From Christensenellaceae bacterium (GTDB lineage: Bacteria > Bacillota > Clostridia > Christensenellales > Borkfalkiaceae), in assembly GCA_045613665.1 (NCBI GenBank), contig JAZLBK010000032.1, positions 1 through 38,586 of the forward strand: a stretch of DNA of 38,586 nt, given 5' to 3'. Positions 7,367-38,586 of the stretch are shown piece after piece. A model generated the notes under the pieces. It did no database searches. It saw nothing but the letters and a program-made list of their open reading frames with translations, and was not told the origin of the DNA. How positions within the stretch are numbered: position 1 is the first letter of the stretch; every line of letters begins with the position of its first letter. Made by a program: the position numbers and the translations under genes.

Positions 7367-7368
7367 AA

Positions 7369-7851
7369 TTATCTTAATACCTTTACTTTTTCAAGAACTT
7401 CATTTGCAAGTTTACGCATTTCCAAATCGTCATTTTGAGTTATATGGTCGTAACCGAACAAGTGTAGTAAGCCGTGGCAAAACAAATAACAAAGTTCCCT
7501 TTCTAAACTGTGCCCGAACTCTTCCGCTTGTTCTTTCGCCCTTTTTTCGCAGATTATAATACTTCCTAAAAACACGTTGCCGTCGTCGTCAAGGTCTAAC
7601 GGAAAGTCTTTTTTATCTACGTTTTTATACCTTATGCCGTCAAGATTAGGAAAGGACAAAACGTCCGTTATTTTGTCAATCCCACGAAATTCAAGGTTGG
7701 TTTTTTTAATAAAATTTTCGTCTACAAGATTAAGTTCAACCGAAACGCTACCCGTTTGATTAAGCGTTTTAATTACTTCGTTAGCAATATCTTCGTAGTT
7801 AAAATTAACCTTTTCGCTGGTTAAAACTTTAATGTTAGCCACGTCCACCAC
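7369..7851 (-). CDS. ybeY: rRNA maturation endoribonuclease YbeY
   Basis: 160 aa with the zinc motif HGLLHLFGYDH. Confidence 0.92.
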   Translation of the reverse strand: MVDVANIKVLTSEKVNFNYEDIANEVIKTLNQTGSVSVELNLVDENFIKKTNLEFRGIDKITDVLSFPNLDGIRYKNVDKKDFPLDLDDDGNVFLGSIIICEKRAKEQAEEFGHSLERELCYLFCHGLLHLFGYDHITQNDDLEMRKLANEVLEKVKVLR

Positions 7852-10262: not shown

Positions 10263-10264
10263 AT

Positions 10265-11176
10265 TTACCCTCCGTATATAGTACGTCTTACCGTTAATAT
10301 TACCTTAATTCCGCCGTCTACGATTTCGTGGCGTTTTTCTTTTATTTCGCCACTTTCGTTAAATTCGGCAAGCGCGTAGGCAACTGAAACGTCAATCTCA
10401 CTTTTACCGTCGCACCTATAAAAGTATTCTGTATTTTTAAGAATTTTAACCCGCGCAAGAACGAAAGTTTTATATTCTTCGCCCTCTTTACCTAAAAGGT
10501 AAGCACCAACGAGTTTATCCCCCGCTTTAACTTGTTGCCCCTTTGTAACGAGCGCAGTTCCTCTTAAAACGGTTATATCTTCAATAACGCCGTCAAATTC
10601 CGCAACTAAATCGCTCGTGTTTTTGCCAAGTATTGACGGTTCGCTTGAAGAAAGCACGGTGTCAACCACCAAAATATTGCCTTGCTTTTTTACCGCAACG
10701 AAAGAAAGGCGTGGGTTTTGAGTTAAAATTTGCCTTTCAATTTCTTTATAGTCAAGTTTAGAAAACCAACTGTATTTAGTTGCGCCTTGCTCGTAAACTA
10801 TTTGTTTGGTTTGCTCTTCAAAACAACTACCGCTACCCGTAACTTTAACGTCTAACAGCAAGTTGTTAAACAGCGCGGATAATATAACGAATAAAATACC
10901 GCCTATAATAAAGCCTGTTTTACTAATTATAAAAGTAATAGGCGACAAAACGCCTTTATGTTTTATTATTTTTTTATTATAACACATATTTTTGCAAATA
11001 GCAAAAAATTTATAAGTATCTAAAAAGTCTATCGTAACGATACACTCTTTTTCACTTTTATAAACAAACTCGTAAACGTTTATATTTTTTCTATGCAAAA
11101 ATTCGGGTAGGTATCTAATTTTTTCGCCTTTAACGTTATATACCGCCCTTAAAAAACCCTTTTTTATCTTTGCCAC
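10265..11176 (-). CDS. yqfD: Sporulation protein YqfD
   Basis: 303 aa with one central TM segment and a YqfD-like N-terminal region. It overlaps yqfC and precedes phoH, the canonical order. Confidence 0.7.
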   Translation of the reverse strand: MAKIKKGFLRAVYNVKGEKIRYLPEFLHRKNINVYEFVYKSEKECIVTIDFLDTYKFFAICKNMCYNKKIIKHKGVLSPITFIISKTGFIIGGILFVILSALFNNLLLDVKVTGSGSCFEEQTKQIVYEQGATKYSWFSKLDYKEIERQILTQNPRLSFVAVKKQGNILVVDTVLSSSEPSILGKNTSDLVAEFDGVIEDITVLRGTALVTKGQQVKAGDKLVGAYLLGKEGEEYKTFVLARVKILKNTEYFYRCDGKSEIDVSVAYALAEFNESGEIKEKRHEIVDGGIKVILTVRRTIYGG

Positions 11177-11424
11177 TCTATTTTCTCCAACTTTCCGCTA
11201 AGCGATATGTCTTTTTCAACGTAGGAAGAAAGGGATAAGTTTTTACCCGAAAAAACTATCTTTCCGCCTTTTGTTATTAAAACTATATTGTCGGGCTTAA
11301 CGTCACAAATTTTTTCTACCCCTTCAACGTAAACGCCACCGCTACCTAATATGGTAATTCGATAGGGGCAGTCACCCATATTGCACAACCTTAAAAAACC
11401 GTTTATACTTTCAGAAAAACCCAT
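11164..11424 (-). CDS. yqfC: Sporulation protein YqfC (YabP/YqfC family)
   Basis: 86 aa with a YabP-like pattern (ITILGSGGVYVEGVEKI ... LSGKLEKIEW) and synteny with yqfD. Confidence 0.7.
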   Translation of the reverse strand: MGFSESINGFLRLCNMGDCPYRITILGSGGVYVEGVEKICDVKPDNIVLITKGGKIVFSGKNLSLSSYVEKDISLSGKLEKIEWQR

Positions 11425-11493
11425 AAACCACCCGTTTTATTCTTTGCCAAACCTAAAAAGAGCAAAGTTAGAATAATATTTATCCGCCTATGC

Positions 11494-11522
11494 TTGACTT
11501 AAAATATAAAAATTGTTATTAT
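11494..11522 (+). promoter_or_regulatory. Putative sigma-A promoter of asnA
   Basis: TTGACT (11494-11499), 17-nt spacer, TATTAT (11517-11522). It lies inside the ORF-track N-terminal extension. Confidence 0.45.
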
Positions 11523-11576
11523 TTAATATATTGTTTGAGCGTGGTTTTAATGCTACGAGAGTATTTAGGTTCGATT

Positions 11577-12584
11577 ATGAAAAATTTATATATACCAAAA
11601 AATTACAAATGCAACTGCGACCTTATTACCAACCAAAAGGCAATAAAGTTCGTTAAAGACAATTTTGAAAGAGTTTTTGCTGAAAACCTTAACCTTTCAA
11701 GAGTAACCGCGCCACTACTCGTGTTTTCTAACACGGGGCTTAATGACGATTTGTCCGGCGTTGAAAGGGCGGTTAGGTTTGACGTTAAGGAACTTGGTCG
11801 CGATGCGGAAATAGTTCACAGCCTTGCAAAATGGAAAAGAACTGCGCTTAAAAAATACGGCTTTAAGTCGGGTTACGGCTTATATACCGATATGAACGCA
11901 ATACGCCGTGACGATAAGGTTGACAACGTTCACTCAATTTACGTCGACCAGTGGGACTGGGAAAGGGTGATTGAAAGAAAGGATAGATGCGTTGAGTTCC
12001 TTAAAGAAATAGTTACCTTAATAGTAAAATCCATTTCAAAAGTAAACGAAATGGCTAAAAAAGAGTTCCCCTTTTTAAGTTTGAATATCAACGAAAACGT
12101 TAAGTTTATAACGGCGGGCGAAGCCGAAGAATTATACCCAGACTATAACGATAAAGAGCGCGAATACGCCCTAACTAAAAAATACGGCACGGTATTTTTA
12201 ATGCAAATCGGCAAACCGCTTAAAAACGGCAAACCGCACGACAACCGCGCCCCCGATTATGACGACTGGGAATTAAACGGCGACATACTTTTCTATAACG
12301 AAGTTTTAGACGCGCCCTTTGAAATTTCAAGTATGGGGATAAGGGTGGACGAAAAGTCGCTTGTATCTCAACTTAAAACGGCAAACGCGGAAGAAAGGCT
12401 TTCGTTTGATTACCATAAACAAATTTTAAGCGGTGAACTCCCCTTAACTATCGGCGGTGGCATAGGTCAGTCAAGGCTTTGTATGTTTATACTTCAAAAA
12501 GCGCATATCGGCGAAGTTCAAGTATCACTTTGGCCAGACGGATTAGAAGAAGAAGCCAAAAAACACGAAATAGTTATTTTATAA
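11577..12584 (+). CDS. asnA: Aspartate--ammonia ligase (asparagine synthetase A)
   Basis: AsnA-type sequence (SIYVDQWDWERVI, GGGIGQSRLCMF). The start is moved to the ATG at 11577 (335 aa) because the upstream 29 codons overlap the promoter and are not AsnA-like. Confidence 0.9.
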   Translation: MKNLYIPKNYKCNCDLITNQKAIKFVKDNFERVFAENLNLSRVTAPLLVFSNTGLNDDLSGVERAVRFDVKELGRDAEIVHSLAKWKRTALKKYGFKSGYGLYTDMNAIRRDDKVDNVHSIYVDQWDWERVIERKDRCVEFLKEIVTLIVKSISKVNEMAKKEFPFLSLNINENVKFITAGEAEELYPDYNDKEREYALTKKYGTVFLMQIGKPLKNGKPHDNRAPDYDDWELNGDILFYNEVLDAPFEISSMGIRVDEKSLVSQLKTANAEERLSFDYHKQILSGELPLTIGGGIGQSRLCMFILQKAHIGEVQVSLWPDGLEEEAKKHEIVIL

Positions 12585-18130: not shown

Positions 18131-19948
18131 TTATTTAGAAAGTCTTTCTTCTAATGCTTTTAATTCGTTTGCAAGTTCTTTTGGAAGTTTGTCGCCGAAT
18201 TGAGCGTAGAATTCTTTAATACCTTTAACTTCTTCAAGCCAAGTAGCCTTGTCAACGTTAAGAAGTTCTTTTACGGTATCAACGTCGATATCAAGACCTT
18301 CAATGTTGATATCTTCTGCGTTAGGTACGTAACCGATTGCTACTTCGTTAGCGCCAACTTCGTTCTTGCATCTCTTAATAATCCATTCAAGAACTCTAAG
18401 GTTATCGCCAAAGCCCGGCCAAATGAAGTTGCCTTCATCGTCAGTTCTAAACCAGTTAACGTTGAAGATTTTAGGTTGATTTGCAATCTTGGTGCCCATA
18501 TTTACCCAGTGAGCAAAGTAGTCAGCCATATTGTAGCCTACGAAAGGACGCATTGCCATCGGGTCACGTCTTACAACACCTACCGCGCCGGTTGCAGCAG
18601 CAGTAGTTTCAGATGCCATGATAGAACCTACGAATACACCGCTGTTCCAATCTCTTGATTGATATACGAGCGGAGCAGTCTTAGCACGTCTACCACCGAA
18701 TACGATTGCAGTTACAGGAACGCCTTCTGGTGCTTCAAATTCAGAAGAAATGCACGGGCAGTTAACCGCAGGAGCAGTGAAACGGCTGTTAGGATGAGCC
18801 GCTTTAACTTCCTTACCGTCTTTATCTACCGTTTCAGGAGTCCAAGGATTGCCTTTCCAGTCGATAAGGTTAGCAGGTTTTTTCTTATCAGCAGTGTCTT
18901 TTTCCATTGCTTCCCACCAAACGGTGTTAGTTTCAGGGTCTAACGCAACGTTGGTGAAAATGGTGTTTTTCATAGTTGAGTATAAAGCGTTGGGGTTAGA
19001 CTTTTTGTTAGTTCCAGGTGCAACGCCGAAGAAACCGTTTTCAGGGTTGATAGCCCAAAGTCTACCGTCTTTACCAACTCTAAGCCAAGCGATATCGTCA
19101 CCTACACACCATACTTTGTAACCTTTCTTTTGTTATACTTCTGGTGGGATAAGCATTGCAAGGTTAGTTTTACCGCAAGCAGAAGGGAACGCCGCAGTGA
19201 TATAGTTGATTTCGCCTTGTGGGTTTTGAATACCAACTATAAGCATGTGTTCAGCCATCCAGCCTTCGTTTTTGCCTTGGTAAGATGCAATTCTAAGAGC
19301 AAAACACTTTTTACCAAGTAATACGTTTCCGCCGTAACCTGAGTTAACCGACCAAATAGTATTGTCTTGTGGGAAGTGTAAAATGTATCTCTTTTCAGGG
19401 TCAAGGTCTGCCTTTGAGTGAAGACCGCGTACGAAATCGTTGCTGTCACCTAATACGTCAAGAACGGCTTTGCCAATTCTCGTCATAATCTTCATACTTA
19501 CTACTACGTAGATAGAATCGGTTACTTCGATACCTACCTTAGAGAAAGTAGAACCAACCGCGCCCATTGAGTAAGGAATAACGTACATGGTTTTGCCTTT
19601 CATAGAACCGTCGAAAATCGCGCCTACTTTTTCGTATGCCTCGCTAGGAGCCATCCAGTTGTTGATAGGACCAGCGTCTTCTTCCTTTTCGGTACAAATG
19701 AAAGTTCTGCCTTCTACACGCGCTACGTCGTTAGGGTCTGAACGGTGAAGGTAACAACCGGGAAGTTTTTCTTCGTTAAGTTTAATAAGTTCGCCAGTTG
19801 AAAGGGCTTCTTTACGAAGTTCTTCAAGTTGAGCCTCGTCGCCGGTAATCCATACGATTTTTTCGGGCTTACAAAGGTTCGCGCTTTCTTCAACGAACTT
19901 TAATACTTGCTCGTTTTTAGTAAATTCGTTACTGATTTGGTATTTCAT
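18131..19948 (-). pseudogene. pckG: GTP-dependent phosphoenolpyruvate carboxykinase interrupted by a single in-frame TAA (codon 272)
   Basis: ORFs 19133-19948 and 18131-18973 are in the same frame. My translation of the gap reads ...[77 protein letters not shown]... All PEPCK-GTP motifs are intact (P-loop, [25 protein letters not shown], NWF). Length is about 605 codons. Confidence 0.85.
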
Positions 19949-21049: not shown

Positions 21050-21081
21050 AAAAGCGTAGGAACTTGCCTACGCTTTTTGTT
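21046..21081. terminator. Bidirectional hairpin terminator
   Basis: agcgtagg (21053-21060) / cctacgct (21067-21074), flanked by A5 and T5. Confidence 0.75.
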
Positions 21082-21668: not shown

Positions 21669-21752
21669 TTTTGTACCTCCCGTCTAATCTCGCCGTATTT
21701 AAGGCGGTGGCAAAGCCACGCTTCCGGAGCCCTTTCCGTGCGGTTCGTAGGT
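21669..21752 (-). promoter_or_regulatory. Structured 5' leader of rplU (putative L21 ribosomal-protein leader)
   Basis: An ~85-nt leader between the promoter and the RBS, with hairpins GTGGC-TTT-GCCAC and CGCC-TTAAATAC-GGCG. A Firmicute L21 leader family exists, but I could not align to it. Confidence 0.4.
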
Positions 21753-21781
21753 ATTTTACAAAATTTTGATTTTTTTGTCAA
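21753..21781 (-). promoter_or_regulatory. Sigma-A promoter of rplU-rpmA
   Basis: On the minus strand, TTGACA (21781-21776), 17-nt spacer, TAAAAT (21758-21753) preceded by TG. Confidence 0.55.
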
Positions 21782-21849
21782 CTGTTTTAACGCATAATTA
21801 ATTCGTAGTAGCACACCATAATTGTAAATCTATATATGGGGGTATTTTT

Positions 21850-22284
21850 ATGGAAAATTGCAATCTTGACTTTATAGGCGAAGTTTACAGAAACGCCAGC
21901 ATCGCACTTCAATCTATTTCAGACGTTATGCCCGAAATAGAAAACGAAGGTTTAAGAAACGAAATTCACGACCAGTATCAAGGCTATGAACACTTTATTG
22001 CCGACCTTACTTCGTACATGCGTGAAAAGGGTTATGAAATTAAGGATATCGGCGCTATGAAAAAAGCAATGATGTGGTCGGCTATTAAAATGAATACTGC
22101 GTTTGACAGTACGCATAGCCATATCGCTGAAATAATGATTAAAGGTACGGTTATGGGCATTACTGAACTTACTAAAATTATAAACGAAACCAAATGCTTA
22201 ACCGACGATAAGGCAATGGAATTTGCTAAACGACTTCTCCACCTTGAAGAAGACTACGAACAACGCCTTAAAAAGCACTTATAA
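21850..22284 (+). CDS. Hypothetical helical protein (144 aa)
   Basis: RBS GGGGG. The composition is predicted all-alpha, and there is no motif I can name. Confidence 0.5.
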   Translation: MENCNLDFIGEVYRNASIALQSISDVMPEIENEGLRNEIHDQYQGYEHFIADLTSYMREKGYEIKDIGAMKKAMMWSAIKMNTAFDSTHSHIAEIMIKGTVMGITELTKIINETKCLTDDKAMEFAKRLLHLEEDYEQRLKKHL

Positions 22285-22289
22285 AAAAA

Positions 22290-22318
22290 CTAAAAACACG
22301 GCAATCGCCGTGTTTTTT
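22290..22318. terminator. Bidirectional hairpin terminator
   Basis: cacggc (22297-22302) / gccgtg (22307-22312), with an A-run upstream and T6 downstream. Confidence 0.75.
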
Positions 22319-22411
22319 AGTTATATTTTTTACCGCCGAAATTAACCTTGCTGGTTATTGAGGTGGTAAAAAGTCGCAGTAACGCAGTATTGCGAAGTTT
22401 ATAACGACTTA
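22318..22411. repeat. Structured intergenic repeat, unit D (subfamily 2, lacks the first ~9 nt)
   Basis: TAGTTATATTTTTT-ACCGCC..TAACC-TTGCT-GGTTA..GGTGGT-..GCAGTAACGCAGTATTGCGAAGTTTATAACGACTTA. The 3' 40 nt match unit B (18-nt and 11-nt identical blocks). The 5' TAGTTATATTTTT matches fragment A'. Confidence 0.75.
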
Positions 22412-23355
22412 TCGTAGGTTTTTGCTTTTTCTTTAAGTATCTTAATACTGTCTACGTAAACGGCTTTGGGGTTTTCTTTAAGGTTAAACCTTTCAACCAC
22501 TTTTTCTATGAGATATTTAGCGTTTCTCATAGCACGGGGGGATTTAATTCTTAAAAATACCGGAACTTGCGCGTAGGCTTTTTTATGCGAAACGTCTTTA
22601 CATTTAAGCCTTGGCTCAACCTGACTATAATCAAGGTTAAGGTAAAGTTTTAACGACTGGGTGGAAAAGCCAAGTTTGAAAAGTTGGGTTCTACCCATAT
22701 TAAAACTGTCAAAATCGTTAGACACGCGTGATTTTACGCCCTTGTATAGAAGAATAATGTTTTTAAGTTCGTCATAACGTTTAAGAATTTCTTTGTCTGC
22801 CTCTAAGAATTTTTGAGCGAAATTCTTTTCAATATAAACGGGTTTTTCAGCCTTTTCTACCACTAAACCGCCACCGTTTTGACTAAGCGCGGTAAGTTCG
22901 GCGGAAATAACTGACTTAGAATTATCAAACTCTGCGTTTACAGTTTCGTCTTCACCGTTAAATAAAACTTCTTCCGATACGACGGTGGGGCGATAAGGCT
23001 CGCTGAACTCTAAATTTTCTTCCGCGATATGTTCATCGTCAACAATATCAATAATTTCTTCAACAATAGAAAATTCTTTTTCATTAGTGGCTGGGCGTTC
23101 GTTTACGAAAAGAGCCTCTTCCCCAACGTCTTCATTATCCATAAGCAACGCTTCAATGGGGGACTCGTTTTCTTCAACCGATAAGTCTTCTATCTCACCG
23201 CCTAAATTCGTAACGGGGGTTGAAAATAAAACTTCTGCGCCAAAATCTGCATTTTCAAAAGCCTCTATCGAAGAAGTTACCTCTTCCGTAGGCTTAGGAT
23301 TTTTTTTGCTAAAAAGTACGTCTTCCTGAATAAAGTCGTGATTATCGTGAGCCAT
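22399..23355 (-). CDS. Hypothetical protein with an acidic N-terminal half and a conserved-looking basic C-terminal domain
   Basis: The start is moved to the ATG at 23355 behind the RBS AAGGTG (318 aa). The N-terminal ~170 aa are rich in E/D/V. The last codons and the stop lie inside repeat unit D. Confidence 0.55.
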   Translation of the reverse strand: MAHDNHDFIQEDVLFSKKNPKPTEEVTSSIEAFENADFGAEVLFSTPVTNLGGEIEDLSVEENESPIEALLMDNEDVGEEALFVNERPATNEKEFSIVEEIIDIVDDEHIAEENLEFSEPYRPTVVSEEVLFNGEDETVNAEFDNSKSVISAELTALSQNGGGLVVEKAEKPVYIEKNFAQKFLEADKEILKRYDELKNIILLYKGVKSRVSNDFDSFNMGRTQLFKLGFSTQSLKLYLNLDYSQVEPRLKCKDVSHKKAYAQVPVFLRIKSPRAMRNAKYLIEKVVERFNLKENPKAVYVDSIKILKEKAKTYDKSL

Positions 23356-23479
23356 AATTTTACACCTTAGTTCTTCGCTTTTTGCAAGCGGTTTTTGTTT
23401 TATTACATATAAGTATAACTTATATTTCACTAAATTGCAATAGTTTAACCCAAAATTTCGCCTTATAGACTACTTTTTA

Positions 23480-23905
23480 TTAGTTTTGAGCCTTGGCAAC
23501 GGCGTTTACAACTCTCATATCCACCTTGCCTTGATAGTTTTGCTTAAAGTGTTTCATAACAGACGGAATTGACTTGTCTTCAAGCCCGCTAATAATATTT
23601 TTAATTTCATCTTCACTTAAAAGTTTAGGAAGATATTTTTTAATAACTTCGATTTGGTTACTTAAAGAAATAACGTTTTCTTCCCTGCCCGCTTTGATAA
23701 AGCCCTCACGTTCTTCGGTGAGTTCCTTTTCGGCTTTTTGAAGTAAACCGTCAACGTCAGCCTCGGTAACTTCTAAACCGCTTGCGCGCCTTTCGATAGT
23801 GAGCGCCATAATCTTGGTAATTATTACGTTAAGGGCTGAAACCTTATCTTTGTCTTTTTGTTTCATTGCTTGAATTTTTTCTAATTTGAACGCGTCAAGT
23901 GTCAT
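23480..23905 (-). CDS. yqeY: GatB/YqeY domain protein
   Basis: 141 aa with a YqeY-like sequence (AMKQKDKDKVSALNVI ... IIKKYLP). The start is set at the ATG at 23905 behind GGAG. Confidence 0.8.
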   Translation of the reverse strand: MTLDAFKLEKIQAMKQKDKDKVSALNVIITKIMALTIERRASGLEVTEADVDGLLQKAEKELTEEREGFIKAGREENVISLSNQIEVIKKYLPKLLSEDEIKNIISGLEDKSIPSVMKHFKQNYQGKVDMRVVNAVAKAQN

Positions 23906-23907
23906 AA

Positions 23908-24729
23908 TCAATTCTCCATAATTTTATCTATTGCAGTGTTGAGGGGTGCGGTGTCAATCATATGCGCGTTGCCACCGTCTATAAAGTTAGCAATTTCGGG
24001 GTTTATAGGCAGTTTTGCAAGAACTTCAAGCCCGTAATTTTGAGCCACGCTTTCAGTTTTGCCTTTGCCGAATATATAGATGGGTTTTTTGCAATCGGGG
24101 CAAACGGCGTAACTCATATTTTCAACGATACCTACGATAGGAACGTTCATCATATTAGCCATTTTAACCGACTTTTCAACTATCATAGATACAAGGTCTT
24201 GCGGGGTGGTTACTACCACTATACCGTCTACCTTAAAACTTTGAAAAACGGTAAGCGGAACGTCACCCGTGCCTGGGGGCATATCTATAAACATTATATC
24301 GTTTTCGCCCCACAAAACGTCGGTATAAAACTGTTTAACTACGCCCGAAATTACCGGTCCACGCCAAACTACCGGCATTGACGGTTCTTCAAGCAACGAG
24401 TTCATACTCATTATTTTTACGCCCGATTTTGAAGTTACGGGGTAAAGCCCTTCGTCACAGCCCTGCGCCCTATCGTTTTCAGTAAGCCCAAAGGCTTTTG
24501 GGATTGACGGACCGGTTACGTCAGCATCTAAAACGGCGGTTTTTAATCCGCGCTTGTTTGCCTCTACCGCAAGAAGAGTGGTGATAAGCGATTTGCCAAC
24601 ACCGCCCTTTCCACTCATAACGGCAATAATTTTCTTAAACTTTGTACCGTCTTTCGGTTTAACGGTAAAATCTCTATCTTTGCAATCGCCTTTATTGCAA
24701 GACGAACAGTCGTGACTGCAATTACTCAT
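23908..24729 (-). CDS. mrp: Mrp/NBP35 (ApbC) family Fe-S cluster carrier ATPase
   Basis: It has the deviant Walker A MSGKGGVGKS, a Cys-rich N-terminus and a CPDC motif. The start is set at the ATG at 24729 behind GGAGAG. Confidence 0.85.
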   Translation of the reverse strand: MSNCSHDCSSCNKGDCKDRDFTVKPKDGTKFKKIIAVMSGKGGVGKSLITTLLAVEANKRGLKTAVLDADVTGPSIPKAFGLTENDRAQGCDEGLYPVTSKSGVKIMSMNSLLEEPSMPVVWRGPVISGVVKQFYTDVLWGENDIMFIDMPPGTGDVPLTVFQSFKVDGIVVVTTPQDLVSMIVEKSVKMANMMNVPIVGIVENMSYAVCPDCKKPIYIFGKGKTESVAQNYGLEVLAKLPINPEIANFIDGGNAHMIDTAPLNTAIDKIMEN

Positions 24730-24835
24730 AACTCTCTCCAAAAAATTTAAGTGATACGTATTTATTATATACTTATTTTCAATTTATGTAAACGGTTTAT
24801 TTAATAAGAAAAAAATTATTTTTTCGCGCTTTATG

Positions 24836-24864
24836 TTGATTTGAAGGACTAAGTGTGGTAAAAT
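24836..24864 (+). promoter_or_regulatory. Putative sigma-A promoter
   Basis: TTGATT (24836-24841), 17-nt spacer ending in TGG, TAAAAT (24859-24864). Confidence 0.45.
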
Positions 24865-24901
24865 ATAGTGGTATTTATTAACTACGCTAAGGAGCGAACG
24901 T

Positions 24902-26386
24902 ATGACAAAAATCGGATTTGACAGCGAAAAGTATCTTCATATGCAATCTGAAAAGATTTCCGAACGCATCAACGAGTTCGGCGGAAAGTTATACCTTGAA
25001 TTCGGCGGTAAACTTTTTGACGATAATCACGCGGCGCGCGTTCTTCCGGGCTTTGCGCCAGACAATAAAATTAAGATGCTTTCAAAACTTAAAGACAAAG
25101 CCGAAATAGTTATCGTTATAAACTCGCTTGATATCCAAAAAAATAAAGTTCGTTCCGACCTTGGCATCACCTACGACCAAGACGTTGTTAGGCTAATAGG
25201 CATTTTTAGAAGTTACGGTCTTTTAGTAGGTAGCGTGGTTTTATCTAAGTTCGACCAGTCTAATGAGCCTGCCGTTTTATTTGCAAAACGCCTAAAAAAA
25301 ATGGGGCTTAAAGTGTATCGCCACTATATTATTAAGGGCTACCCTTCTAACGTTGAACATATTATTAGTGACGAGGGATACGGTAAAAATGAATATATTG
25401 AAACGAGCAGAAATTTAGTTGTTGTAACCGCACCCGGTCCAGGTAGCGGTAAAATGGCTACTTGTTTATCTAATATTTATCACGACCTTAAACGCGGAAT
25501 TAAATCGGGATACGCTAAATACGAAACTTTTCCTATTTGGAACTTACCGCTTAAACACCCCGTAAACGTTGCTTACGAAGCGGCAACCGCCGACCTTAAC
25601 GACGTTAATATGATAGACCCGTGGCATTTATCCGCTTACGGCGTAACGACGGTTAACTATAATCGTGACGTTGAGATTTTCCCCGTTCTTAACACTTTAT
25701 TTGAAAGGCTTATGGGAATTTCGCCATATAAATCGCCTACCGATATGGGCGTAAATATGGCTGGCTTTGCAATTTGTGACGACGCGGTTTGTCAAGAAGC
25801 GTCTAAGCAAGAGATTATAAGGCGTTATTTTAAGGCGCTTGAAAACGAAAGGAGAAACAACTTAGACCCCGACGAAAGCGAAAAGATTTTACACCTAATG
25901 CGCGGGCTTAACGTTGCGGTAGAAGAAAGAAAGGTTTACGTTGCTTGCGCTGAAAAATCCCAAAAAGAAAAAGTTCCTTGTAGCGCAATAGAACTTAGTG
26001 ACGGTAAGATTATAACGGGAAAAACGAGTGAACTTTTAGAAAGCCAAAGCGCAATGCTACTTAACGCGCTTAAATACCTTGCCGAGATTGACGACGATAT
26101 TAAAATTCTTCTTCCTGAAAGAATAGTTCCTATTACCGAACTTAAAGTAAAATACCTATCGTCACAAACGCCAAGGCTACATATAGACGAAATGCTTATA
26201 GCCTTATCTAGTTCGTCGGTTACTAATAAATACGCTCAACTTGCAATATCTAAACTACCCTTGCTTAGCGGAGCGCAAATGCACTCGTCAGTTCTTCTTC
26301 CGCATATCGACCTTAAAATGCTTAGAAAACTCGGCATAGTTTCAACAAGCACGGCGGTTTATGAAGATAAAAACTTAAAGAAATAA
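24902..26386 (+). CDS. UPF0371/DUF1846 family protein
   Basis: 494 aa. The N-terminus IGFDSEKYLHMQSEKISERI..KLYLEFGGKLFDDNHAARVLPGF is characteristic of the family, as I recall it. Confidence 0.75.
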   Translation: MTKIGFDSEKYLHMQSEKISERINEFGGKLYLEFGGKLFDDNHAARVLPGFAPDNKIKMLSKLKDKAEIVIVINSLDIQKNKVRSDLGITYDQDVVRLIGIFRSYGLLVGSVVLSKFDQSNEPAVLFAKRLKKMGLKVYRHYIIKGYPSNVEHIISDEGYGKNEYIETSRNLVVVTAPGPGSGKMATCLSNIYHDLKRGIKSGYAKYETFPIWNLPLKHPVNVAYEAATADLNDVNMIDPWHLSAYGVTTVNYNRDVEIFPVLNTLFERLMGISPYKSPTDMGVNMAGFAICDDAVCQEASKQEIIRRYFKALENERRNNLDPDESEKILHLMRGLNVAVEERKVYVACAEKSQKEKVPCSAIELSDGKIITGKTSELLESQSAMLLNALKYLAEIDDDIKILLPERIVPITELKVKYLSSQTPRLHIDEMLIALSSSSVTNKYAQLAISKLPLLSGAQMHSSVLLPHIDLKMLRKLGIVSTSTAVYEDKNLKK

Positions 26387-26387
26387 A

Positions 26388-26411
26388 AAAAGCACGCAAA
26401 AGCGTGCTTTT
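26388..26411. terminator. Bidirectional hairpin terminator
   Basis: agcacgc (26391-26397) / gcgtgct (26401-26407), with A6 upstream and T4-5 downstream. Confidence 0.75.
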
Positions 26412-26464
26412 TAGTTTAGTTATATTTTTCTTTTAACGCAGTATTGCGCCGTTTATATCAACTT
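26411..26464. repeat. Structured intergenic repeat, fragment A' (subfamily 2 with internal deletion)
   Basis: TAGTTTAGTTATATTTTTCTTTTAACGCAGTATTGCGCCGTTTATATCAACTTA. It shares TAGTTATATTTTT and TAACGCAGTATTGCG with unit D and abuts unit A head-to-tail. Confidence 0.6.
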
Positions 26465-26590
26465 ATTTAAGGCGTTAGTTACAAGCAAGACAAGGCTCGC
26501 AAGGTCTTGCGGACAGCACTAACCTTTTTGGTTGTGATGGTCGTAAGACCGTAGCAGTAACGAAGTATAATGCCCGAAATAACGACTTAA
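26465..26590. repeat. Structured intergenic repeat, unit A (subfamily 1, full length ~126 nt)
   Basis: The first ~92 nt are identical to unit B except for a 1-nt T indel in a loop. The termini TTTAAGGCGTTA / TAACGACTTAAA are inverted repeats. Confidence 0.85.
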
Positions 26591-26593
26591 AAA

Positions 26594-27979
26594 TTAGATT
26601 TCAACGACAGAAAAAGAATTTTTAACTACAAGCCTTCCTTCTTTAAGGTCTTTAATTTCGCCAGCGGATATAATTTGAGTTAAAAGGTTTCCAACTGCCG
26701 TGCCTTCGGTAGGCCCTGCTAAAACGCGTTTACCCGTGTACTCTTTGGTAAGTTTATTAAGGTATTCGTCCTTACTACCACCGCCTACTATATTTAACAC
26801 GTCAAACGACTTGTTAGTAACTTCTTCGGTTGCTTTAATAGTTTTTGTGTAGATAGTTGCTAAACTTCTATAAATAACGTCCATAATCTCGCCAACGGTA
26901 GACGGAACTTTTAAACCGTATTCAGCACAGTAGCCCTTAATAGCGTCAATCATTGATTCGGGGGCTAAGAACCTATTGTCGTTAAGGTCGATAATAGAAC
27001 CCGTGGACGTGCAGTCAATCGCTAATTTCATAAGTTCGTCATAACTATACTTGCCACCAAGTTCCTTTTTAACGCTTTGAATTGCCCACATACCCGTAAT
27101 GTTTCTTAAAAACCTTATAGTTCCACCGTAACCACCTTCGTTGGTTGCGTTGAACTTGAACGCCTTGTCGTTAGTAATAGGCGCGTCAAGTTCCGTACCA
27201 AGCAACGACCACGTTCCGCTTGAAATGTATAGCGGACAGCCTTTGATTGCAGGAACTGCCATAACGGCGCTTGCCGTATCGTGAGATGCCGGGAATACGA
27301 CTTTGGTGTTAAACCCTACTTCTTCTTGAATTTCTTTTCTAAGGTCGCCAAGGACTTCACCAGGTTTATAAATTTTGCCGAAGATTTCACGCGGGTAACC
27401 AAGTTTATCTATTATTTCAAAGGACCAGTTGCCCGTTTTTGCGTCTAACAAACCGCTTGTTGACGCGTGCGTATACTCGTTCTTTTTAACACCGCTAAGT
27501 AAAAAATGCAAGTAATCTGGGATTGAAAGCATAGTTTTTGCCTTTTGTAATTTTCCGCTTAACTTGTCTGCATAAAGTTGATAAACGGTGTTATATTGAG
27601 CCCTTTGTATACCCGTTATTTTATAACTTTCTTCAAAGGGAATAATTTTTTCAACTTCTATAAGGGCGTTTTCGGTTCTCGCGTCACGATAGGAAATAAC
27701 GTCGCCAATTAAACGATCGTTCTCATCTAAAAGCGCGTAGTCTACACCCCAAGTGTCAATAGCCACAGAATAAGGTATTATTCCTAAGTTTTTACACTCT
27801 TTAATGCCGTTTACTATGTTTTTAAAAAGCGCGTCAACATCCCAAACAAGATAGTCGCCTTTTTTTATCGCACCGTTAGAAAAACGGTAAATTTCTTTAA
27901 GGGTAAGTTTACCGTTTTCATAATTACCTAAAATATGCCTACCGCTTGACGCACCTATATCAACTGCTAAATAATACAT
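26594..27979 (-). CDS. rhaB: Rhamnulokinase-like FGGY sugar kinase
   Basis: AVDIGASSGRHILG, IDTWGVDYALLD and YRDARTE resemble RhaB. The start is set at the ATG at 27979 behind AAGGAG (461 aa). No rhaA or rhaD is nearby. Confidence 0.7.
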   Translation of the reverse strand: MYYLAVDIGASSGRHILGNYENGKLTLKEIYRFSNGAIKKGDYLVWDVDALFKNIVNGIKECKNLGIIPYSVAIDTWGVDYALLDENDRLIGDVISYRDARTENALIEVEKIIPFEESYKITGIQRAQYNTVYQLYADKLSGKLQKAKTMLSIPDYLHFLLSGVKKNEYTHASTSGLLDAKTGNWSFEIIDKLGYPREIFGKIYKPGEVLGDLRKEIQEEVGFNTKVVFPASHDTASAVMAVPAIKGCPLYISSGTWSLLGTELDAPITNDKAFKFNATNEGGYGGTIRFLRNITGMWAIQSVKKELGGKYSYDELMKLAIDCTSTGSIIDLNDNRFLAPESMIDAIKGYCAEYGLKVPSTVGEIMDVIYRSLATIYTKTIKATEEVTNKSFDVLNIVGGGSKDEYLNKLTKEYTGKRVLAGPTEGTAVGNLLTQIISAGEIKDLKEGRLVVKNSFSVVEI

Positions 27980-28013
27980 CTTTAACTCCTTTTCTATATA
28001 TAATAATAGTATA

Positions 28014-28760
28014 TCATTTTTTATCGCTACTTTCAAGCGGTTTTTTAATAAGGTTGTGGCGTTTATCGTCTACAAGCGCGTTAAAAACGTTGTCTTTGAG
28101 CAAGGGGTATTTTACGGCAAGTTCTTTAATAGTTTTTTTAACTTCTTCGCGCTGAGTAAACTTGTCCACCGGGCAGGGATTTTTTAAGATAGGTTTATCT
28201 TTTGAAAAGGATACGATTTCGTGTTCTTTAACGTAAAGTAGCGGTCTTATTACCGTTAAATCGGCTTTTGAAAGATAAGTTACCGGTTGAAAAGTTGATA
28301 GCCTGCCTTCGTATATCATTGAAAGAAAGAAAGTTTCAATTAAATCGTCGCCGTGATGACCGAGCGCAACTTTGTTACAGCCTAAGTTTTTAGCCGTAGA
28401 ATTAAGCGCGCCACGGCGCATATTCGCGCATAAGGAACAAGGGTTTTTTTCCTTTCTTTCTTCAAACACCACTTGGTAAATTTGAGTTTTTTCAACGTGA
28501 TAAGTAACGTTTATAGTTGCAAGGTAATCGGCAAGGGCTTTTTCTTCTTGCTCGTTATAGCCAATACCCGTATCAATTCTAATTGCTACGATATCAAACT
28601 TTTCAGGATAAAACCGTCGTAGCCCTGCAAGTGCGGAAAGAAGGGCAATACTATCTTTTCCACCAGATAAGCCAACCGCGATTTTATCGCCAGCCTTTAT
28701 CATATTAAAATCGCTAACTGCTCGCCTTACGGGCGACATTAGTTGTTGTAAAGTTAACAT
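28014..28760 (-). CDS. ttcA: PP-loop ATPase, tRNA 2-thiocytidine synthase TtcA-like
   Basis: It has the PP-loop GLSGGKDS and CSLCANMRRG. The start is set at the ATG at 28760 (248 aa), because the ORF-track N-terminal 63 aa overlap the divergent gene. Confidence 0.75.
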   Translation of the reverse strand: MLTLQQLMSPVRRAVSDFNMIKAGDKIAVGLSGGKDSIALLSALAGLRRFYPEKFDIVAIRIDTGIGYNEQEEKALADYLATINVTYHVEKTQIYQVVFEERKEKNPCSLCANMRRGALNSTAKNLGCNKVALGHHGDDLIETFFLSMIYEGRLSTFQPVTYLSKADLTVIRPLLYVKEHEIVSFSKDKPILKNPCPVDKFTQREEVKKTIKELAVKYPLLKDNVFNALVDDKRHNLIKKPLESSDKK

Positions 28761-37220: not shown

Positions 37221-37231
37221 TTTATAAGTAA

Positions 37232-37262
37232 ATATCCACCAGTTCGGCTGGTGGATATTTTT
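37232..37262 (+). terminator. Rho-independent terminator of ackA
   Basis: atatccaccag (37232-37242) / ctggtggatat (37248-37258) followed by T5. Confidence 0.8.
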
Positions 37263-37341
37263 ATTTGGATTTATTTTTTTATATTAAAAAAACATAGGCG
37301 CACCTATGCTTTAATTTTTATTAAGTTTATATAAAACACCC

Positions 37342-37468
37342 TTTAAGGCGTTAGTTACAAGCAAGACAAGGCTCGCAAGGTCTTGCGGACAGCACTAACC
37401 TTTTTTGGTTGTGATGGTCGTAAGACCGTAGCAGAAACGCAGTATTGCGAAGTAAATAACGACTTAAA
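37342..37468. repeat. Structured intergenic repeat, unit B (subfamily 1, full length 127 nt)
   Basis: Terminal inverted repeats TTTAAGGCGTTA / TAACGACTTAAA. Internal helices are GCAAGAC/GTCTTGC, CAC-AACC/GGTT-GTG, ATGGTC-GTAA-GACCGT and CGCA-GTAT-TGCG. The 5' 92 nt equal unit A. Confidence 0.85.
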
Positions 37469-37469
37469 G

Positions 37470-37595
37470 TTTAAGGCGTCAGTTACAAGCATAACGAGGC
37501 TCACGAAAAAAGGCAGGATTGGATAGACCTTTTTGGTCATCCAAGTCTGCCTTTTGAGTAGTAACAAAGTTATGCGCCGTAAATAACGGATTAAA
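37470..37595. repeat. Structured intergenic repeat, unit C (divergent subfamily 3)
   Basis: It has the same head (TTTAAGGCGTCAGTTACAAGCA) and tail (AGTAGTAAC...GTAAATAACGGATTAAA) as units A and B, but an unrelated interior built around a long hairpin. It overlaps the capD-like stop codon. Confidence 0.75.
37504..37556. terminator. Bidirectional terminator embedded in repeat unit C (terminates the capD-like gene)
   Basis: GGCAGGATTGGATAGACC-TTTTT-GGTCATCCAAGTCTGCC (15-17 bp), flanked by A7 on the 5' side and T4 on the 3' side. Confidence 0.7.
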
Positions 37596-38586
37596 AACGT
37601 TCGTCAATAGTATAAGTATCAACAAGTTCCTTAACCGAATATTTCATATTTTCGGTTTCTTCGTAGGCTTCTTTGTAAAGACGGTCAAGAACGTTCCAGA
37701 AATTATTTTCGTTAATTTTTATAGGCTTTGCAATGCTTATTTGACCGTTTGAAGTTTTTTGAAGACCTTCTTCGTCCATAAGCCTTTCTTCGTATAGTTT
37801 TTCGCCGGGGCGAAGACCTGTGCACACGATATCAATATCAACGTTAGGCTCGTAACCAGAAAGCCTTACAAGATTACAAGCAAGGTCGTAAATTCTTACT
37901 TGCTCACCCATATCAAGAACGAATATTTGACCGCTTTTTGCAAACGCGCCAGCCTGCAATACCAAAGCAACGGCTTCTTGAATAGTCATAAAATATCTTA
38001 CAACGTCTTTATGCGTAACGGTTACGGGACCGCCTTCTTCTATTTGTTTTTTGAATAAAGGTATTACCGAGCCGTTAGAACCTAAAACGTTACCAAACCT
38101 TACCGCCACAAACTTAGTTGATTTACTGTGACTGCCTATCGTCTGTATTATCATTTCGCAAATTCGCTTGGTTGCACCCATAATGTTTGTGGGGTTAACC
38201 GCCTTATCGGTAGAGATTTGAACGAAAGTTTCTACACCGAACTTGTCGGCACAGCGGGCTAAGTTGAGCGTTCCAAACACGTTGTTTTTAACGGCTTCGT
38301 TAGGGCTTGTTTCCATAAGCGGAACGTGTTTATGCGCTGCGGCGTGGAATACGATTTGCGGTTTATATTTAGTAAAAACGTTTTCCATTTTGCCCTTTTC
38401 ACGTATGTTTGCAATAAGGGCAAGTATATCGCGATGTGGGTATTTACGTTTAAGTTCTTGTTCTATTTCGTAAGCGTTGTTTTCGTAAATATCTAAAATG
38501 ATAAGTTGAGTGGGCTCAAAGGTTATTATTTGACGGCAAAGTTCACTACCTATCGAACCGCCACCGCCCGTTACCAAAACGACTTT
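37591..38586 (-). CDS. Polysaccharide biosynthesis protein, CapD/PglF-like NDP-sugar 4,6-dehydratase/epimerase (N-terminus beyond the window edge)
   Basis: It has the SDR Rossmann motif VTGGGGSIGSEL and CapD-like sequence throughout. The ORF stays open to the right edge of the window. Confidence 0.85.
   Translation of the reverse strand, partial: KVVLVTGGGGSIGSELCRQIITFEPTQLIILDIYENNAYEIEQELKRKYPHRDILALIANIREKGKMENVFTKYKPQIVFHAAAHKHVPLMETSPNEAVKNNVFGTLNLARCADKFGVETFVQISTDKAVNPTNIMGATKRICEMIIQTIGSHSKSTKFVAVRFGNVLGSNGSVIPLFKKQIEEGGPVTVTHKDVVRYFMTIQEAVALVLQAGAFAKSGQIFVLDMGEQVRIYDLACNLVRLSGYEPNVDIDIVCTGLRPGEKLYEERLMDEEGLQKTSNGQISIAKPIKINENNFWNVLDRLYKEAYEETENMKYSVKELVDTYTIDERF

Follow-up and report, generated by a model that had tools for sequence, protein, structure and literature searches.

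Units B and C as adjacent members of a lineage-specific family of modular palindromic interspersed repeats of about 126 bp in uncultured gut Clostridia

Downstream of ackA, in a 38,586-nt stretch of DNA from a Christensenellaceae bacterium (hereafter the window, meaning the whole stretch that was analysed), two heavily base-paired units of about 126 nt lie next to each other in an intergenic region. The question raised by this locus is what kind of element they are. A sequence-only reading of the window had assigned them to no known element and had left two models, a non-autonomous MITE-like mobile element and a structured RNA family with compensatory change. The coordinates and sequences given there for these units, B and C, their head-to-tail order and their spacing by a single base (G37469) were all reproduced. 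The features of the region are listed below.

37230..37260 (+): intrinsic terminator of ackA, outside the repeat
37289..37312 (-): intrinsic terminator for the minus-strand transcript running from the CapD-like gene through C to B
37323..37337 (+): tail-like scrap AAGTTTATATAAAAC, read from the sequence
37342..37468 (+): unit B, full, type I core, nhmmer E 4e-40
37342-47/37463-68 and 37349-53/37457-61 (+): stems P1 and P2 of unit B
37355-58/37452-55 and 37361-67/37442-48 (+): stems P3 and P4 of unit B
about 37401-37406 (+): apical T6 loop of unit B
37470..37595 (+): unit C, full, with its own core, covariance model 112 bits
37591..37593 (-): TAA stop of the CapD-like gene, within the last 5 nt of unit C
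37591-38577 (-): ORF of the CapD-like gene, Pfam Polysacc_synt_2

The tail of unit C, ATTAAA (37590-37595), includes the stop codon of the CapD-like gene, and its core is a 17-bp inner hairpin around ACC-TTTTT-GGT. Searches with nhmmer and a covariance model, on which the list of copies in the window is based, identified three full units (A, B and C) and two fragments (D and A') and no further match to the family in the window. The 22-nt head TTTAAGGCGTYAGTTACAAGCA occurs three times there, against 0.01 occurrences expected by chance. The earlier count of at least five copies is correct for the number of pieces, but only three of them are full units. The copies outside the B/C region and the sites compared with them are as follows.

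21050..21081: empty site, a terminator alone between a 285-aa gene and rpmA
22292..22319: bidirectional terminator hairpin at the D locus, read from the sequence
22332..22411 (+): unit D, 5'-truncated, type III core (TTTTTTACCGCCGAAATTAACC...), nhmmer E 1e-12
26387..26412: bidirectional terminator between DUF1846 (+) and the unit array / FGGY kinase (-)
26435..26465 (+): A', tail scrap of a former unit (AACGCAGTATTGCGCCGTTTATATCAACTTA), adjoining unit A
26466..26592 (+): unit A, full-length, chimeric, covariance model 116 bits

Unit A lies 2 nt from the stop codon of the FGGY kinase (26594-26596). Its head and type I core match those of B, while its P3 and P4 stems are mismatched because on the gene-proximal side it carries GTATAATGCCCGAAATAACG, a tail of the L003u1 type; this tail is common to the orthologous unit in the related genome L039. 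The match of A' is weak (E 0.02-0.3), and unit D reaches 34 bits with the covariance model. A 343-aa minus-strand gene ends within the tail of D, which holds its two final codons and its stop (TCG TTA TAA, with the stop at 22399-22401); the end of this gene was placed by alignment of orthologue C-termini and comparison of gene ends. The scrap in front of B, described before as tail-like, does resemble the GTTTATAAC tail variant of D, L001u2, L022_10962 and L029, and judged by these letters it is a putative remnant of a unit tail of that variant.

The family extends beyond the window, as a search for further copies, proposed with the sequence-only reading, has demonstrated. Related Clostridia MAG or metagenome contigs, about ten in number, contain no fewer than 17 additional full copies besides many partial ones; about 160 kb of these contigs hold 16 full and about a dozen partial copies, and L040 adds one full copy. 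The hosts are uncultured gut Clostridia labelled at NCBI as 'Clostridia bacterium' or 'Christensenellaceae bacterium'. Exact-pattern scans with the 20-21-nt head of the window returned 2 loci in genome collections and 3 loci in metagenome collections, and the family is under-sampled in them because its relatives use head variants (TTTAAGACG, TTTAAGCCG, ...AAAC, ...TTGC). Tandem arrays are present, together with a three-fold 127-nt repeat of half-units, and a module composed of a terminator-like hairpin, of the kind seen at 37289-37312, and TTTAATTT is linked to half-units and precedes unit arrays in L022 and L038. In viral contigs the exact head had no match, and eight matches to a degenerate head, all within phage genes and followed by no unit, were rejected as chance ones; BLAST searches of plasmid and phage sequences returned nothing meaningful. 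At the gathering threshold of Rfam only two tRNAs matched in the window, and a permissive scan of 37230-37620 gave chance-level matches only. Contigs that carry the ackA of the window end about 25 nt past this gene, in its terminator hairpin, and in the relatives of this gene found on long contigs ackA occupies a different locus, beside BMC genes.

All units are 124-129 nt long and are built from three modules. The head (TTTAAGNCGTTAG(TT/AA)RCAAG....RAGGC) and the tail (AGWAACRMAG....G..GT(AA/TT)ATAACGNNTTAAA) are conserved, the unit ends reading TTTAAG / CTTAAA, and the core between them is one of several discrete hairpins capped by an ACC-TTTTT-GGT-like loop. At least six distinct core types exist, each conserved between genomes. 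The view that the interiors are almost unrelated and yet paired is therefore to be divided: the pairing is real, whereas the interiors are not free-form and belong to a few discrete core types. The units contain no conserved ORF; the only ORFs of the B/C region are short ones that run across unit junctions, and a protein database search with the 70-aa ORF across the B/C junction yielded no candidates.

Because head and tail pair with each other and purine-purine mismatches are conserved, the entire unit is one long hairpin. In every unit this hairpin is single and imperfect, of about 55 bp, and exceeds shuffled controls, with fold z-scores of -3.0 to -7.8 as RNA and -3.6 to -6.3 as ssDNA (-5.6 and -5.9, respectively, in unit B; -7.7 in unit C). 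Across 18 units, 89.7% of the cells are paired compared with 79.8% in shuffles, none of 500 shuffles reaches the score, and slid controls pair at 16-43%. Changes on both sides were recorded in 14 of 26 stem pairs, which bears out the proposed compensatory change. The stems P1-P3, which comprise the terminal inverted repeats, are paired in 91.8% of cells. Two details of the earlier folding had to be replaced. The pairing of GTTAC with GTAAC gives way to that of TTAC with GTAA of GTAAATAAC, a P3 pair that changes in a coupled manner to AAAC/GTTT in 7 of the 18 units. The local hairpins proposed in B (GCAAGAC/GTCTTGC and CGCA-GTAT-TGCG) are not conserved and were rejected, since it is across the long hairpin that their partner segments covary, pairing with each other as P4; the variants of P4 are GCAAGAC/GTATTGC, GCATAAC/GTTATGC, GCTAAAG/CTTTAGC and GTTAGGC/GCATAAC. 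Folding revealed no conserved local hairpin within the head or the tail, both of which pair only in the long helix between the arms.

Strong covariation of this kind counts in favour of a cis-acting structured RNA in 3' UTRs, in which the hairpin itself would be selected and the copies would arise via duplication and gene conversion. Such an RNA could be a control point for RNase III or an exonuclease, or a roadblock to the terminating ribosome. A conserved asymmetric internal loop, in which ARG faces AGWAACRMA, and the G14·A120 mismatch, invariant across units, speak for it as well, as does the strand asymmetry of the covariance model, which scores 112-129 bits on one strand and 13-20 bits on the other (unit B, 129 bits on + and only 20 bits on -). 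Both features, the loop and the G·A mismatch, suggest that one folded strand is specifically recognised, and this strand could be RNA. Against this, the sense that is usually transcribed, minus, folds less stably than the plus sense in 12 of 13 units and carries pyrimidine-pyrimidine mismatches, those of the plus sense being G·A and A·A. Moreover, G·U intermediates are very rarely encountered where pairs vary, and the G·T and A·C oppositions are balanced (25 vs 33), which looks like a constraint on a DNA palindrome and not on a single RNA strand; an attempt to pick the folded strand from G·T (G·U) versus A·C oppositions was abandoned on account of this balance.

The genomic setting of the units is unusually regular. 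They usually start 0-4 nt past a TAA stop, as at six independent loci, and upstream of a terminator, and at about 10 of 11 loci they have the same orientation with respect to the upstream gene; both regularities support an RNA function, and neither would be expected of a purely selfish, randomly inserting element. At all three window loci the unit is situated, as had been noted, between the stop codon of a minus-strand gene and a terminator. The statement that every locus is convergent applies to these three but not outside the window, where L003 lies between co-directional genes and L012 inside an operon. The opposite sense of the L012 unit within its operon speaks against a dedicated 3' UTR RNA, and so does the lack of functional relation among the adjoining genes (ackA, FGGY kinase, rpmA and similar). 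These neighbours are housekeeping genes with synteny conserved across five genomes.

Location at gene 3' ends might also mean that the units are nothing more than unusually long terminators or duplicated terminator regions resembling SPRITE, a precedent for such an arrangement (PMC3049150). The association of half-units with the terminator-like hairpin and TTTAATTT would agree with that, as would the T6 that follows the inner hairpin of C on the minus strand, a hairpin formerly read as a bidirectional terminator. That reading was not borne out, as a terminator scan called none in C on either strand and none inside any other unit of the window, while separate canonical terminators stand beyond the units at every window locus. 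Most cores lack a T tract after the stem, C alone among the window units having one after its inner stem, and the L012 unit separates two genes of one operon. The terminator explanation is therefore highly improbable.

Gain and loss of units can be followed at three orthologous sites, each filled in some genomes and empty in others, which supplies the empty-site comparison proposed earlier. At the ADH-BMC junction a unit is present in L012, whereas the site is empty in L011 and in L008; L012 and L011 share 96% identity in their ackA proteins. The rpmA locus carries an insert of about 360 nt with units in L022, is empty in the window and in L040 (where the gap is 38 nt in the gene table), and holds a collapsed head-tail remnant in L038. 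At the 3' end of the P0124-family gene, the window, L029, L022, L038 and L039 have a filled site and L040 an empty one. Where filled and empty sites were aligned (L012 vs L011/L008; L022 vs window), the ends run into stretches of T/A and strings resembling TTAA; a duplication of TA, TAA or TTAA fits imperfectly in each case, and from the three filled/empty pairs, whose genomes are too diverged for a choice among these, no clean target-site duplication could be derived.

Exchange of modules at fixed positions is equally evident. The D locus has a truncated type III core in the window and a full type II unit in strain L029, with the same immediate flanks (about 20 nt on each side) and a gene product 91% identical. 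Units A and L039_6483 share the gene-proximal tail and differ in heads and cores. Hence loci gain and lose units, and units swap modules, form arrays and decay to half-units. The filled and empty sites, core replacement, chimeras, and truncated and collapsed remnants favour, of the two models put forward at first, the mobile or interspersed-repeat one.

The same comparisons bear on the RNA explanation in both directions. The 3' end of the FGGY gene carries a unit in all five genomes compared despite core swapping, and the window and L022 agree at 96% of positions in the type I core, compared with about 82% in the flanking coding DNA. Such persistence and conservation argue for a selected RNA, and they fit purifying selection and homogenisation equally well. 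In contrast, two chimeric units with broken P3/P4 stems both occupy this conserved FGGY locus, and truncated units and empty orthologous sites likewise speak against a hairpin kept for its function; nor did any Rfam family match. REPs located less than about 15 nt from a stop codon are said to stall ribosomes, a finding reportedly made by Liang, Rudd and Deutscher in 2015, and such stalling would suit the position of the units. In E. coli, moreover, REPs are reported to stabilise transcripts from the 3' UTR and to be leaky terminators (bioRxiv 10.64898/2026.03.23.713779), a further point in favour. On balance, a structured RNA as the full explanation is possible, albeit rather unlikely.

Replacement of a core at a fixed site with unchanged immediate flanks would also be compatible with folded ssDNA recombination sites, similar to integron attC or to the attP hairpin of CTX phage, at which a site-specific recombinase would move or exchange modules of a gene plus its 3' end. 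The units share with attC paired ends around GTT...AAC boxes (CGTTAG / ATAACG), a variable paired centre, conserved mismatches as strand-marking irregularities, a comparable length (about 126 nt) and a location where the neighbouring ORF ends, at its stop codon or overlapping it. L038 contains an extra gene, Flg_new, with its own unit right behind its stop, inside the FGGY-DUF1846 array, and L040 has an inverted segment with both breakpoints in unit-bearing intergenic regions. However, both the inversion and the extra gene are explicable by ordinary recombination between palindromic repeats. The canonical RYYYAAC/GTTRRRY cores, whose absence had been pointed out before, are indeed missing, the nearest strings being GTTAGTT or GTTAGAA and AAATAAC or TTATAAC, and the box order is reversed, with GTT first and AAC last in ORF direction. 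The neighbours are syntenic housekeeping genes rather than a cassette array, tandem units have no ORF between them, and no integrase or recombinase is nearby. Recombination sites of this type are thus an improbable account of the family. Inspection of the alignments by eye for attC cores, a dif-like XerD arm and a GTAG/CGTC tag found none of them.

No enzyme that could move the units was encountered close to them. The claim that the window lacks a transposase, RAYT or integrase is sustained within the genes covered, namely 28 window ORFs tested against Pfam, with no transposase or integrase among them, and the L006 gene table of most remaining window genes (about 29.5-37.2 kb), in which none is listed. 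The gene tables of the related contigs likewise contain no transposase, RAYT or integrase, and the genes called in pieces of about 20 kb of each host genome gave no Y1_Tnp match.

By sequence the units remain unassignable, as first claimed, in the Rfam, plasmid and phage searches; by architecture they are not, since REPIN and BOX elements are close parallels. REPINs are REP doublets that form hairpins and are mobilised by RAYT transposases, with conserved ends, a less conserved yet paired spacer, compensatory changes, tandem clusters and singlet remnants (Bertels and Rainey, 2011, PMC3116915). The units agree with them in size (about 70-130 nt), in having two inverted end regions of high conservation around a paired middle that is less conserved and commonly shows compensatory changes, and in a hairpin predicted in both ssDNA and mRNA, and also in extragenic location, tandem clusters, defunct half-elements and persistence at orthologous positions. 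They differ in that their ends are not short palindromes (a REP is an imperfect palindrome of 20-40 nt), their middle consists of discrete conserved core types and not of a drifting spacer, no RAYT was seen in the window ORFs or the related-contig gene tables, and no GTAG or CGTC tag is conserved, GTAG being confined to the type I core and unit C and lacking in the other core types. The host differs too, being a Clostridia lineage; the phyla named for GTAG repeats in a REP survey include Proteobacteria, Cyanobacteria, Chloroflexi and the PVC group, and Firmicutes are not mentioned (PMC3733652).

BOX elements of streptococci have the structure boxA-boxBn-boxC (Croucher et al., 2011, PMC3049150) and, similarly to RUP and SPRITE, are enriched between convergent genes (PMC3049150). 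BOX and the present units have in common a Firmicutes host, terminal modules that pair around a variable central one, a transcript with extensive base pairing, a preference for sites between convergent genes, orientation following the coding strand and frequent co-location with other small repeats. The two were compared by description only and no sequence relationship between them is known; the centre of the units is an alternative hairpin instead of a variable number of tandem boxB modules, and the abutment to stop codons is much tighter. ERIC/IRU elements, imperfect palindromes of 127 bp in enterobacteria, are nearly equal in length to the units, and both they and Correia/NEMIS elements form, in the same manner, a single long and imperfect palindrome that is transcribed together with adjacent genes. 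A TA duplication borders the copies of ERIC and Correia. For the units no such duplication could be defined; furthermore, the hosts are unrelated, Rfam indicated no sequence similarity, and ERIC and Correia copies are alike over their full length, whereas the units swap cores between types. Both families are reported to affect mRNA stability, ERIC by way of RNase E and Correia by way of RNase III (PMC2229807, PMC3049150). With classical MITEs the units have in common terminal inverted repeats, a length below 300 bp, no coding capacity and presence/absence polymorphism.

B and C are, in consequence, adjacent members of a lineage-specific family of modular palindromic interspersed repeats of about 126 bp. 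This is a new family of the REPIN/BOX/ERIC kind, probably non-autonomous and co-transcribed as a 3' UTR hairpin, and the explanation that fits best overall, with a probability of roughly 0.6, is that of non-autonomous palindromic interspersed DNA repeats behaving in the REPIN/BOX/ERIC manner. As non-autonomous DNA elements, the units would be spread or exchanged by an enzyme encoded elsewhere, which may recognise the folded single strand or the inverted ends, and recombination between copies may assist in this. They would settle where insertion is tolerated, in a T-rich stretch right past a TAA stop or a terminator and upstream of the terminator of the gene. Settling between stop and terminator would result in co-transcription as a long 3' UTR hairpin, which would likely affect processing or stability of the mRNA 3' end and perhaps termination by the last ribosome.

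Persistence at the FGGY locus together with core swapping, the G·A mismatch, the asymmetric loop and the orientation shared by about 10 of 11 loci keep a further option in view, in which the units would be more than tolerated junk and would form a new class of strand-specific folded elements homing to the first nucleotides behind a stop codon or a terminator T-tract. It might take one of two forms: ssDNA substrates of a hypothetical hairpin-recognising enzyme that would move 3' UTR/terminator modules and occasionally genes, or a conserved 3' UTR RNA device that would couple translation termination to mRNA fate. Such a class is considered doubtful.

Much work has been devoted to the small palindromic interspersed repeats of Proteobacteria (REP/REPIN, ERIC, Correia) and of streptococci, where BOX, RUP and SPRITE are known (PMC3049150); no description of such a family was found for uncultured gut Clostridia, which are dominant in many animal microbiomes. 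The units place a hairpin of about 55 bp directly behind the stop codons of housekeeping genes, provide genes with new C-termini and stop codons, the D locus being an example, and mark the sites of one inversion and one gene insertion. The family may contribute to breaks in metagenome assemblies, the ackA contigs ending about 100 nt before the units, and the covariance model built here is usable for masking or annotating these repeats in MAGs. It also offers a system outside Proteobacteria in which the persistence of repeats at orthologous positions, and the enzyme that maintains them, may be studied.

Re-reading of the sequence placed units B and C in tandem with a gap of one base, as the sequence-only reading had described; its observation is confirmed, and its interpretation, a MITE-like element or a structured RNA, is partly supported. 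Three copies of the 22-nt head TTTAAGGCGTYAGTTACAAGCA are present in the window, with starts at 26466, 37342 and 37470, all on the plus strand, against a chance expectation of 0.01. A profile HMM and a covariance model (CM) run with filters off recognised three full units and two partial copies, and found no further match in the 38.6 kb:

26466-26592, plus strand, full unit A
37342-37468, plus strand, full unit B
37470-37595, plus strand, full unit C
about 22332-22411, 5'-truncated unit D (CM 34 bits, E 4e-6)
26435-26465, A', a weak tail scrap

The full units were predicted to fold as a single long imperfect hairpin as RNA (z -3.0 to -7.8 vs dinucleotide shuffles), and their folds as ssDNA reached z -3.6 to -6.3 on the same comparison. 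The G+C content of the window is 37.8%, and its gene content by Pfam is housekeeping (28 ORFs tested). In line with the earlier statement, neither a transposase nor an integrase was found among these 28 ORFs by Pfam scans or in the gene table of contig L006, which includes most of the other genes of the window.

The exact-head scan revealed units in two GTDB MAGs, one a 'Clostridia bacterium' from yak rectum and the other 'Christensenellaceae bacterium' JAZSMT01, and in three contigs, all of one metagenome. Further loci were reached via homologues of window proteins. These contigs, from related Clostridia, comprise syntenic relatives of the window (L022-L025 from ENA, L038 from JAZPCV01, L039 again from JAZSMT01, L040 from JAZPFB01), the close strains L026-L029 and a further relative, L012 (JAZRSR01). 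Within 160 kb of related loci the covariance model detected 16 full units and about a dozen partial ones, and L040 adds one full copy. Other genomes use head variants, for which the exact-head patterns are too narrow, and the counts are a lower bound. Therefore, the repeat family is certainly more widespread than the scans show. No match to the units was obtained in Rfam at any threshold, which upholds, at the level of sequence, the claim that they belong to no known family. Plasmids and phages showed no similarity to the units, and viral contigs contained no true copies. The contigs with the window's exact ackA or HU protein are all short (L006, L007; L014-L021, metagenomes). The two with a complete ackA, L006 and L007, end ~25 nt past its stop, inside the terminator hairpin of ackA and ~100 nt short of the units; the window organism's assemblies seem to break in the repeat- and palindrome-rich region after ackA.

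The hairpin is real and constrained. Its anatomy and pair counts were determined from an alignment of 18 distinct full units, the pair counts also from a 13-unit version. Each unit in the 18-unit alignment consists of three modules, and the pairing of head with tail forms four stems:

Head: TTTAAGNCGTTAG(TT/AA)RCAAG, 6-7 variable nt, RAGGC
Core: hairpin with an apex like (A/G)ACC-TTTTT-GGT(T/C)
Tail: AGWAACRMAG, 6-7 variable nt, G..GT(AA/TT)ATAACGNNTTAAA
Stem P1: TTTAAG/CTTAAA
Stem P2: CGTTA/TAACG
Stem P3: TTAC/GTAA
Stem P4: 7 bp

Paired cells amounted to 89.7%, compared with 79.8% in shuffles, and none of 500 shuffles reached the observed value. Changes on both sides affected 14 of 26 pairs (7.5 in shuffles), the covariation score was 0.283 (0.120 in shuffles), and in the control with partners slid by 1-3 columns 16-43% of cells were paired. 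P3 is replaced by AAAC/GTTT in seven units, and P4 takes the forms GCAAGAC/GTATTGC, GCATAAC/GTTATGC, GCTAAAG/CTTTAGC, GTTAGGC/GCATAAC and GTATATC/GATAGAC. This covariation refutes the GTTAC/GTAAC pairing proposed earlier, along with the local hairpins of B (GCAAGAC/GTCTTGC and CGCA-GTAT-TGCG). The cores are not free-form and fall into discrete types (u1 and u2 denote units within a contig):

Type I: A, B, L003u2 and two L022 units
Type II, GGCGTTTGCG...GGAAGGGAGCGACC: L012, L029, two L022 units and L040
Type III, TTTTTTACCGCCGA.ATTAACC: D and one L022 half-unit, with a related form in L002u1
Other cores: C, L002u2 and L003u1

Between the stems, the G14·A120 mismatch is invariant and an asymmetric loop (ARG opposite AGWAACRMA) is conserved; G26·A108 is unpaired in 14 of the 18 units. 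The invariant mismatch would suit units acting as a functional RNA, the rival explanation to a mobile repeat. The unit is, moreover, not a symmetric palindrome: the same DNA scored 112-129 bits with the CM in the plus sense and 13-20 bits in the minus. When each 5' arm was aligned to its own 3' arm and Watson-Crick, G·T and A·C oppositions were set aside, nearly all of those left on the plus strand were purine-purine (97 A·G, 24 A·A, 20 G·G, vs 3 pyrimidine-pyrimidine). The G·T and A·C oppositions are balanced (25 vs 33) and G·U intermediates are rare among covarying pairs, and both features speak against a functional RNA. The plus-sense fold was more stable than the minus in 12 of 13 units.

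At all three window loci the unit lies between convergent genes, with the minus-strand gene's stop codon on its tail side and a terminator beyond its head. The claim that every locus is convergent holds for these three, but not for L003, where the flanking genes are co-directional, nor for L012. In its placement L012 is the one clear exception, as its unit is oriented the other way and sits within a BMC operon, between two of the genes. With orthologous sites counted once, about 10 of the 11 loci with known context share the same orientation relative to the upstream gene (two-sided binomial p about 0.01, by our own count), and the normally transcribed strand is thus the minus sense. In gene sense, the ends of the FGGY kinase gene (unit A locus), the P0124-family gene (D locus) and the L003 gene read TAA, then 2-4 T, then TTTAAG or TTAATC. 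Those of L002 (TAA-A-TTTAAGG) and of the Flg_new gene in L038 (TAA-TTAC-TTTAAT) are slightly different and equally close, and in L039 (FGGY) and unit C the TAA of the gene is the unit's own. Orthologues at the D locus end in ...TY(N/D)K(D/Q)* with the unit just behind; in the window, L029 and L026 a loss of ~13 nt took away the native stop, and the ORF runs two codons into the unit to end in ...DKSL*. At two loci, L022 rpmA and L039 at 18036, the unit directly follows the T tract of a terminator, not a stop codon. We infer a preference for T-rich sequence directly behind a stop codon or terminator. The units adjoin unrelated genes, at places where insertions are least harmful. The tight abutment on stop codons and the orientation bias would favour a functional RNA, whereas the weaker fold of the transcribed strand speaks against one. 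It is quite improbable that the unit is a strand-specific element homing to the bases immediately behind a stop codon, whether it would serve as a substrate for ssDNA recombination or as a 3' UTR device coupled to translation termination.

The copies turn over by gain, loss and recombination, and some have degraded. The ADH-BMC junction measures 12 nt in L011 and L008 vs ~160 nt with one unit in L012; L012 and L011 share 96% identity in their ackA proteins. The rpmA locus is an empty site of 32 nt with only a terminator in the window, about 390 nt with units in L022, a collapsed head-tail remnant (TTAAAGCCGTTTATACGGC) in L038 and only a 38-nt gap in L040. A unit follows the P0124-family gene in five lineages and is missing in L040. 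Window unit A and L039_6483 have a common gene-proximal tail (GTATAATGCCCGAAATAACG) with different heads and cores, which leaves their P3/P4 stems mismatched. The D locus carries a truncated type III core in the window vs a full type II unit in L029, within the same immediate flanks, and the gene products are 91% identical. Syntenic DNA of the window and L022 is ~82% identical, and the type I core shows only three differences between them over its central 74 nt (our count). Tandem pairs 1 nt apart occur in the window (B/C) and L003. In longer arrays, a full unit beside the gene is preceded by half-units ending in a common alternative module: a terminator-like G+C hairpin of variable sequence plus TTTAATTTGTTT(T)ATTACAAC..TAT, immediately ahead of the following TTTAAG head. 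L038 (10999-11380) has head, half core and this leader module as three tandem repeats of 127 nt; the module is also found at:

37289-37341, window
about 6725-6770, L022
about 11370-11420, L022

The L012 insert likewise starts ...CATATTACAAAAAAC. Therefore, the mobile segment may actually have its 5' end 15-25 nt ahead of TTTAAG. In each of the five genomes a unit, with differing cores, sits at the stop codon of the FGGY kinase gene, even in L040 despite an inverted neighbouring segment. Such long persistence at one gene would fit a functional RNA; the chimeras with broken stems and the empty sites argue against it, and that explanation is considered unlikely.

Several further features were noticed. 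Compared with the window, L022, L038 and L039, L040 has the DUF1846-ParA-YqeY-P0124-family segment inverted (6576-12487, vs window 21850-28036); both ends of the inversion map to the two intergenic regions where the other genomes bear units, consistent with recombination between palindromic repeats. Only L038 has an extra gene between the FGGY unit and DUF1846 (5756-6940; 265 aa, Flg_new domain, own promoter region), with a diverged unit right behind its stop codon (6815-6932, CM 45 bits). A second, unrelated repeat family, absent from the window, lies between terminator and unit arrays (L022 6790-6950 and 11440-11590; L039 6895-6921); its short hairpins with TAAC or TTAC loops and GTTATG spacers (e.g. 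GTTATGGTTGCCTAACGGCAAGTTATGAGTTGGCTTACGCCAACGCTGTGG) look like a REP/BIME cluster. A single in-frame stop at 19133-19135 (minus strand; ...PPEV*QKKGY...) divides the GTP-dependent PEPCK gene of the window (18131-19948) into two ORFs; syntenic L022 has Tyr in its place (...PPEIYQKKGY...), and the stop reflects either a nonsense mutation, which would make the gene a pseudogene, or an error in sequencing. A ~105-nt G+C-rich stretch at 4470-4575, probably on the minus strand, has complementary ends (GGGCGG...CCCCCGCC), lies between two intrinsic-terminator-like hairpins beside tRNA-Ser(GCT) and looks like a small RNA gene, for which Rfam gave nothing above noise. Upstream of rplU (L21), the long leader at 21669-21849 looks structured and had no Rfam match at the gathering threshold; an L21 leader family is known in Firmicutes.

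The units are an undescribed family of small palindromic interspersed repeats, a known class, in which they are placed because they behave and are built like REPINs and BOX elements. REPINs have conserved inverted ends around a less conserved pairing spacer with common compensatory changes, form tandem clusters and leave singlets as remnants, and the units match this behaviour and architecture (PMC3116915). The BOX-type repeats of streptococci are modular like the units; they, too, occur preferentially between convergent genes and are oriented with the coding strand (PMC3049150). However, a strict REPIN was rejected, since the ends are not REP palindromes, the GTAG or CGTC tag is missing and no RAYT was seen. 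An attC site was rejected for its missing cores, box order reversed relative to the ORF, and lack of an integrase and a cassette array, and a terminator because the units have separate terminators beyond them and no terminator call fell inside a unit. The repeats are probably non-autonomous and would be mobilised by an enzyme acting in trans.

Their placement also suggests consequences at the RNA level. Liang, Rudd and Deutscher reportedly described in 2015 ribosome stalling with a REP no more than about 15 nt from the stop codon. REPs have been reported to stabilise the mRNA upstream of them and to be leaky terminators (bioRxiv 10.64898/2026.03.23.713779). Whatever maintains the units, a ~55-bp hairpin within a few nucleotides of the stop codon should affect the mRNA.
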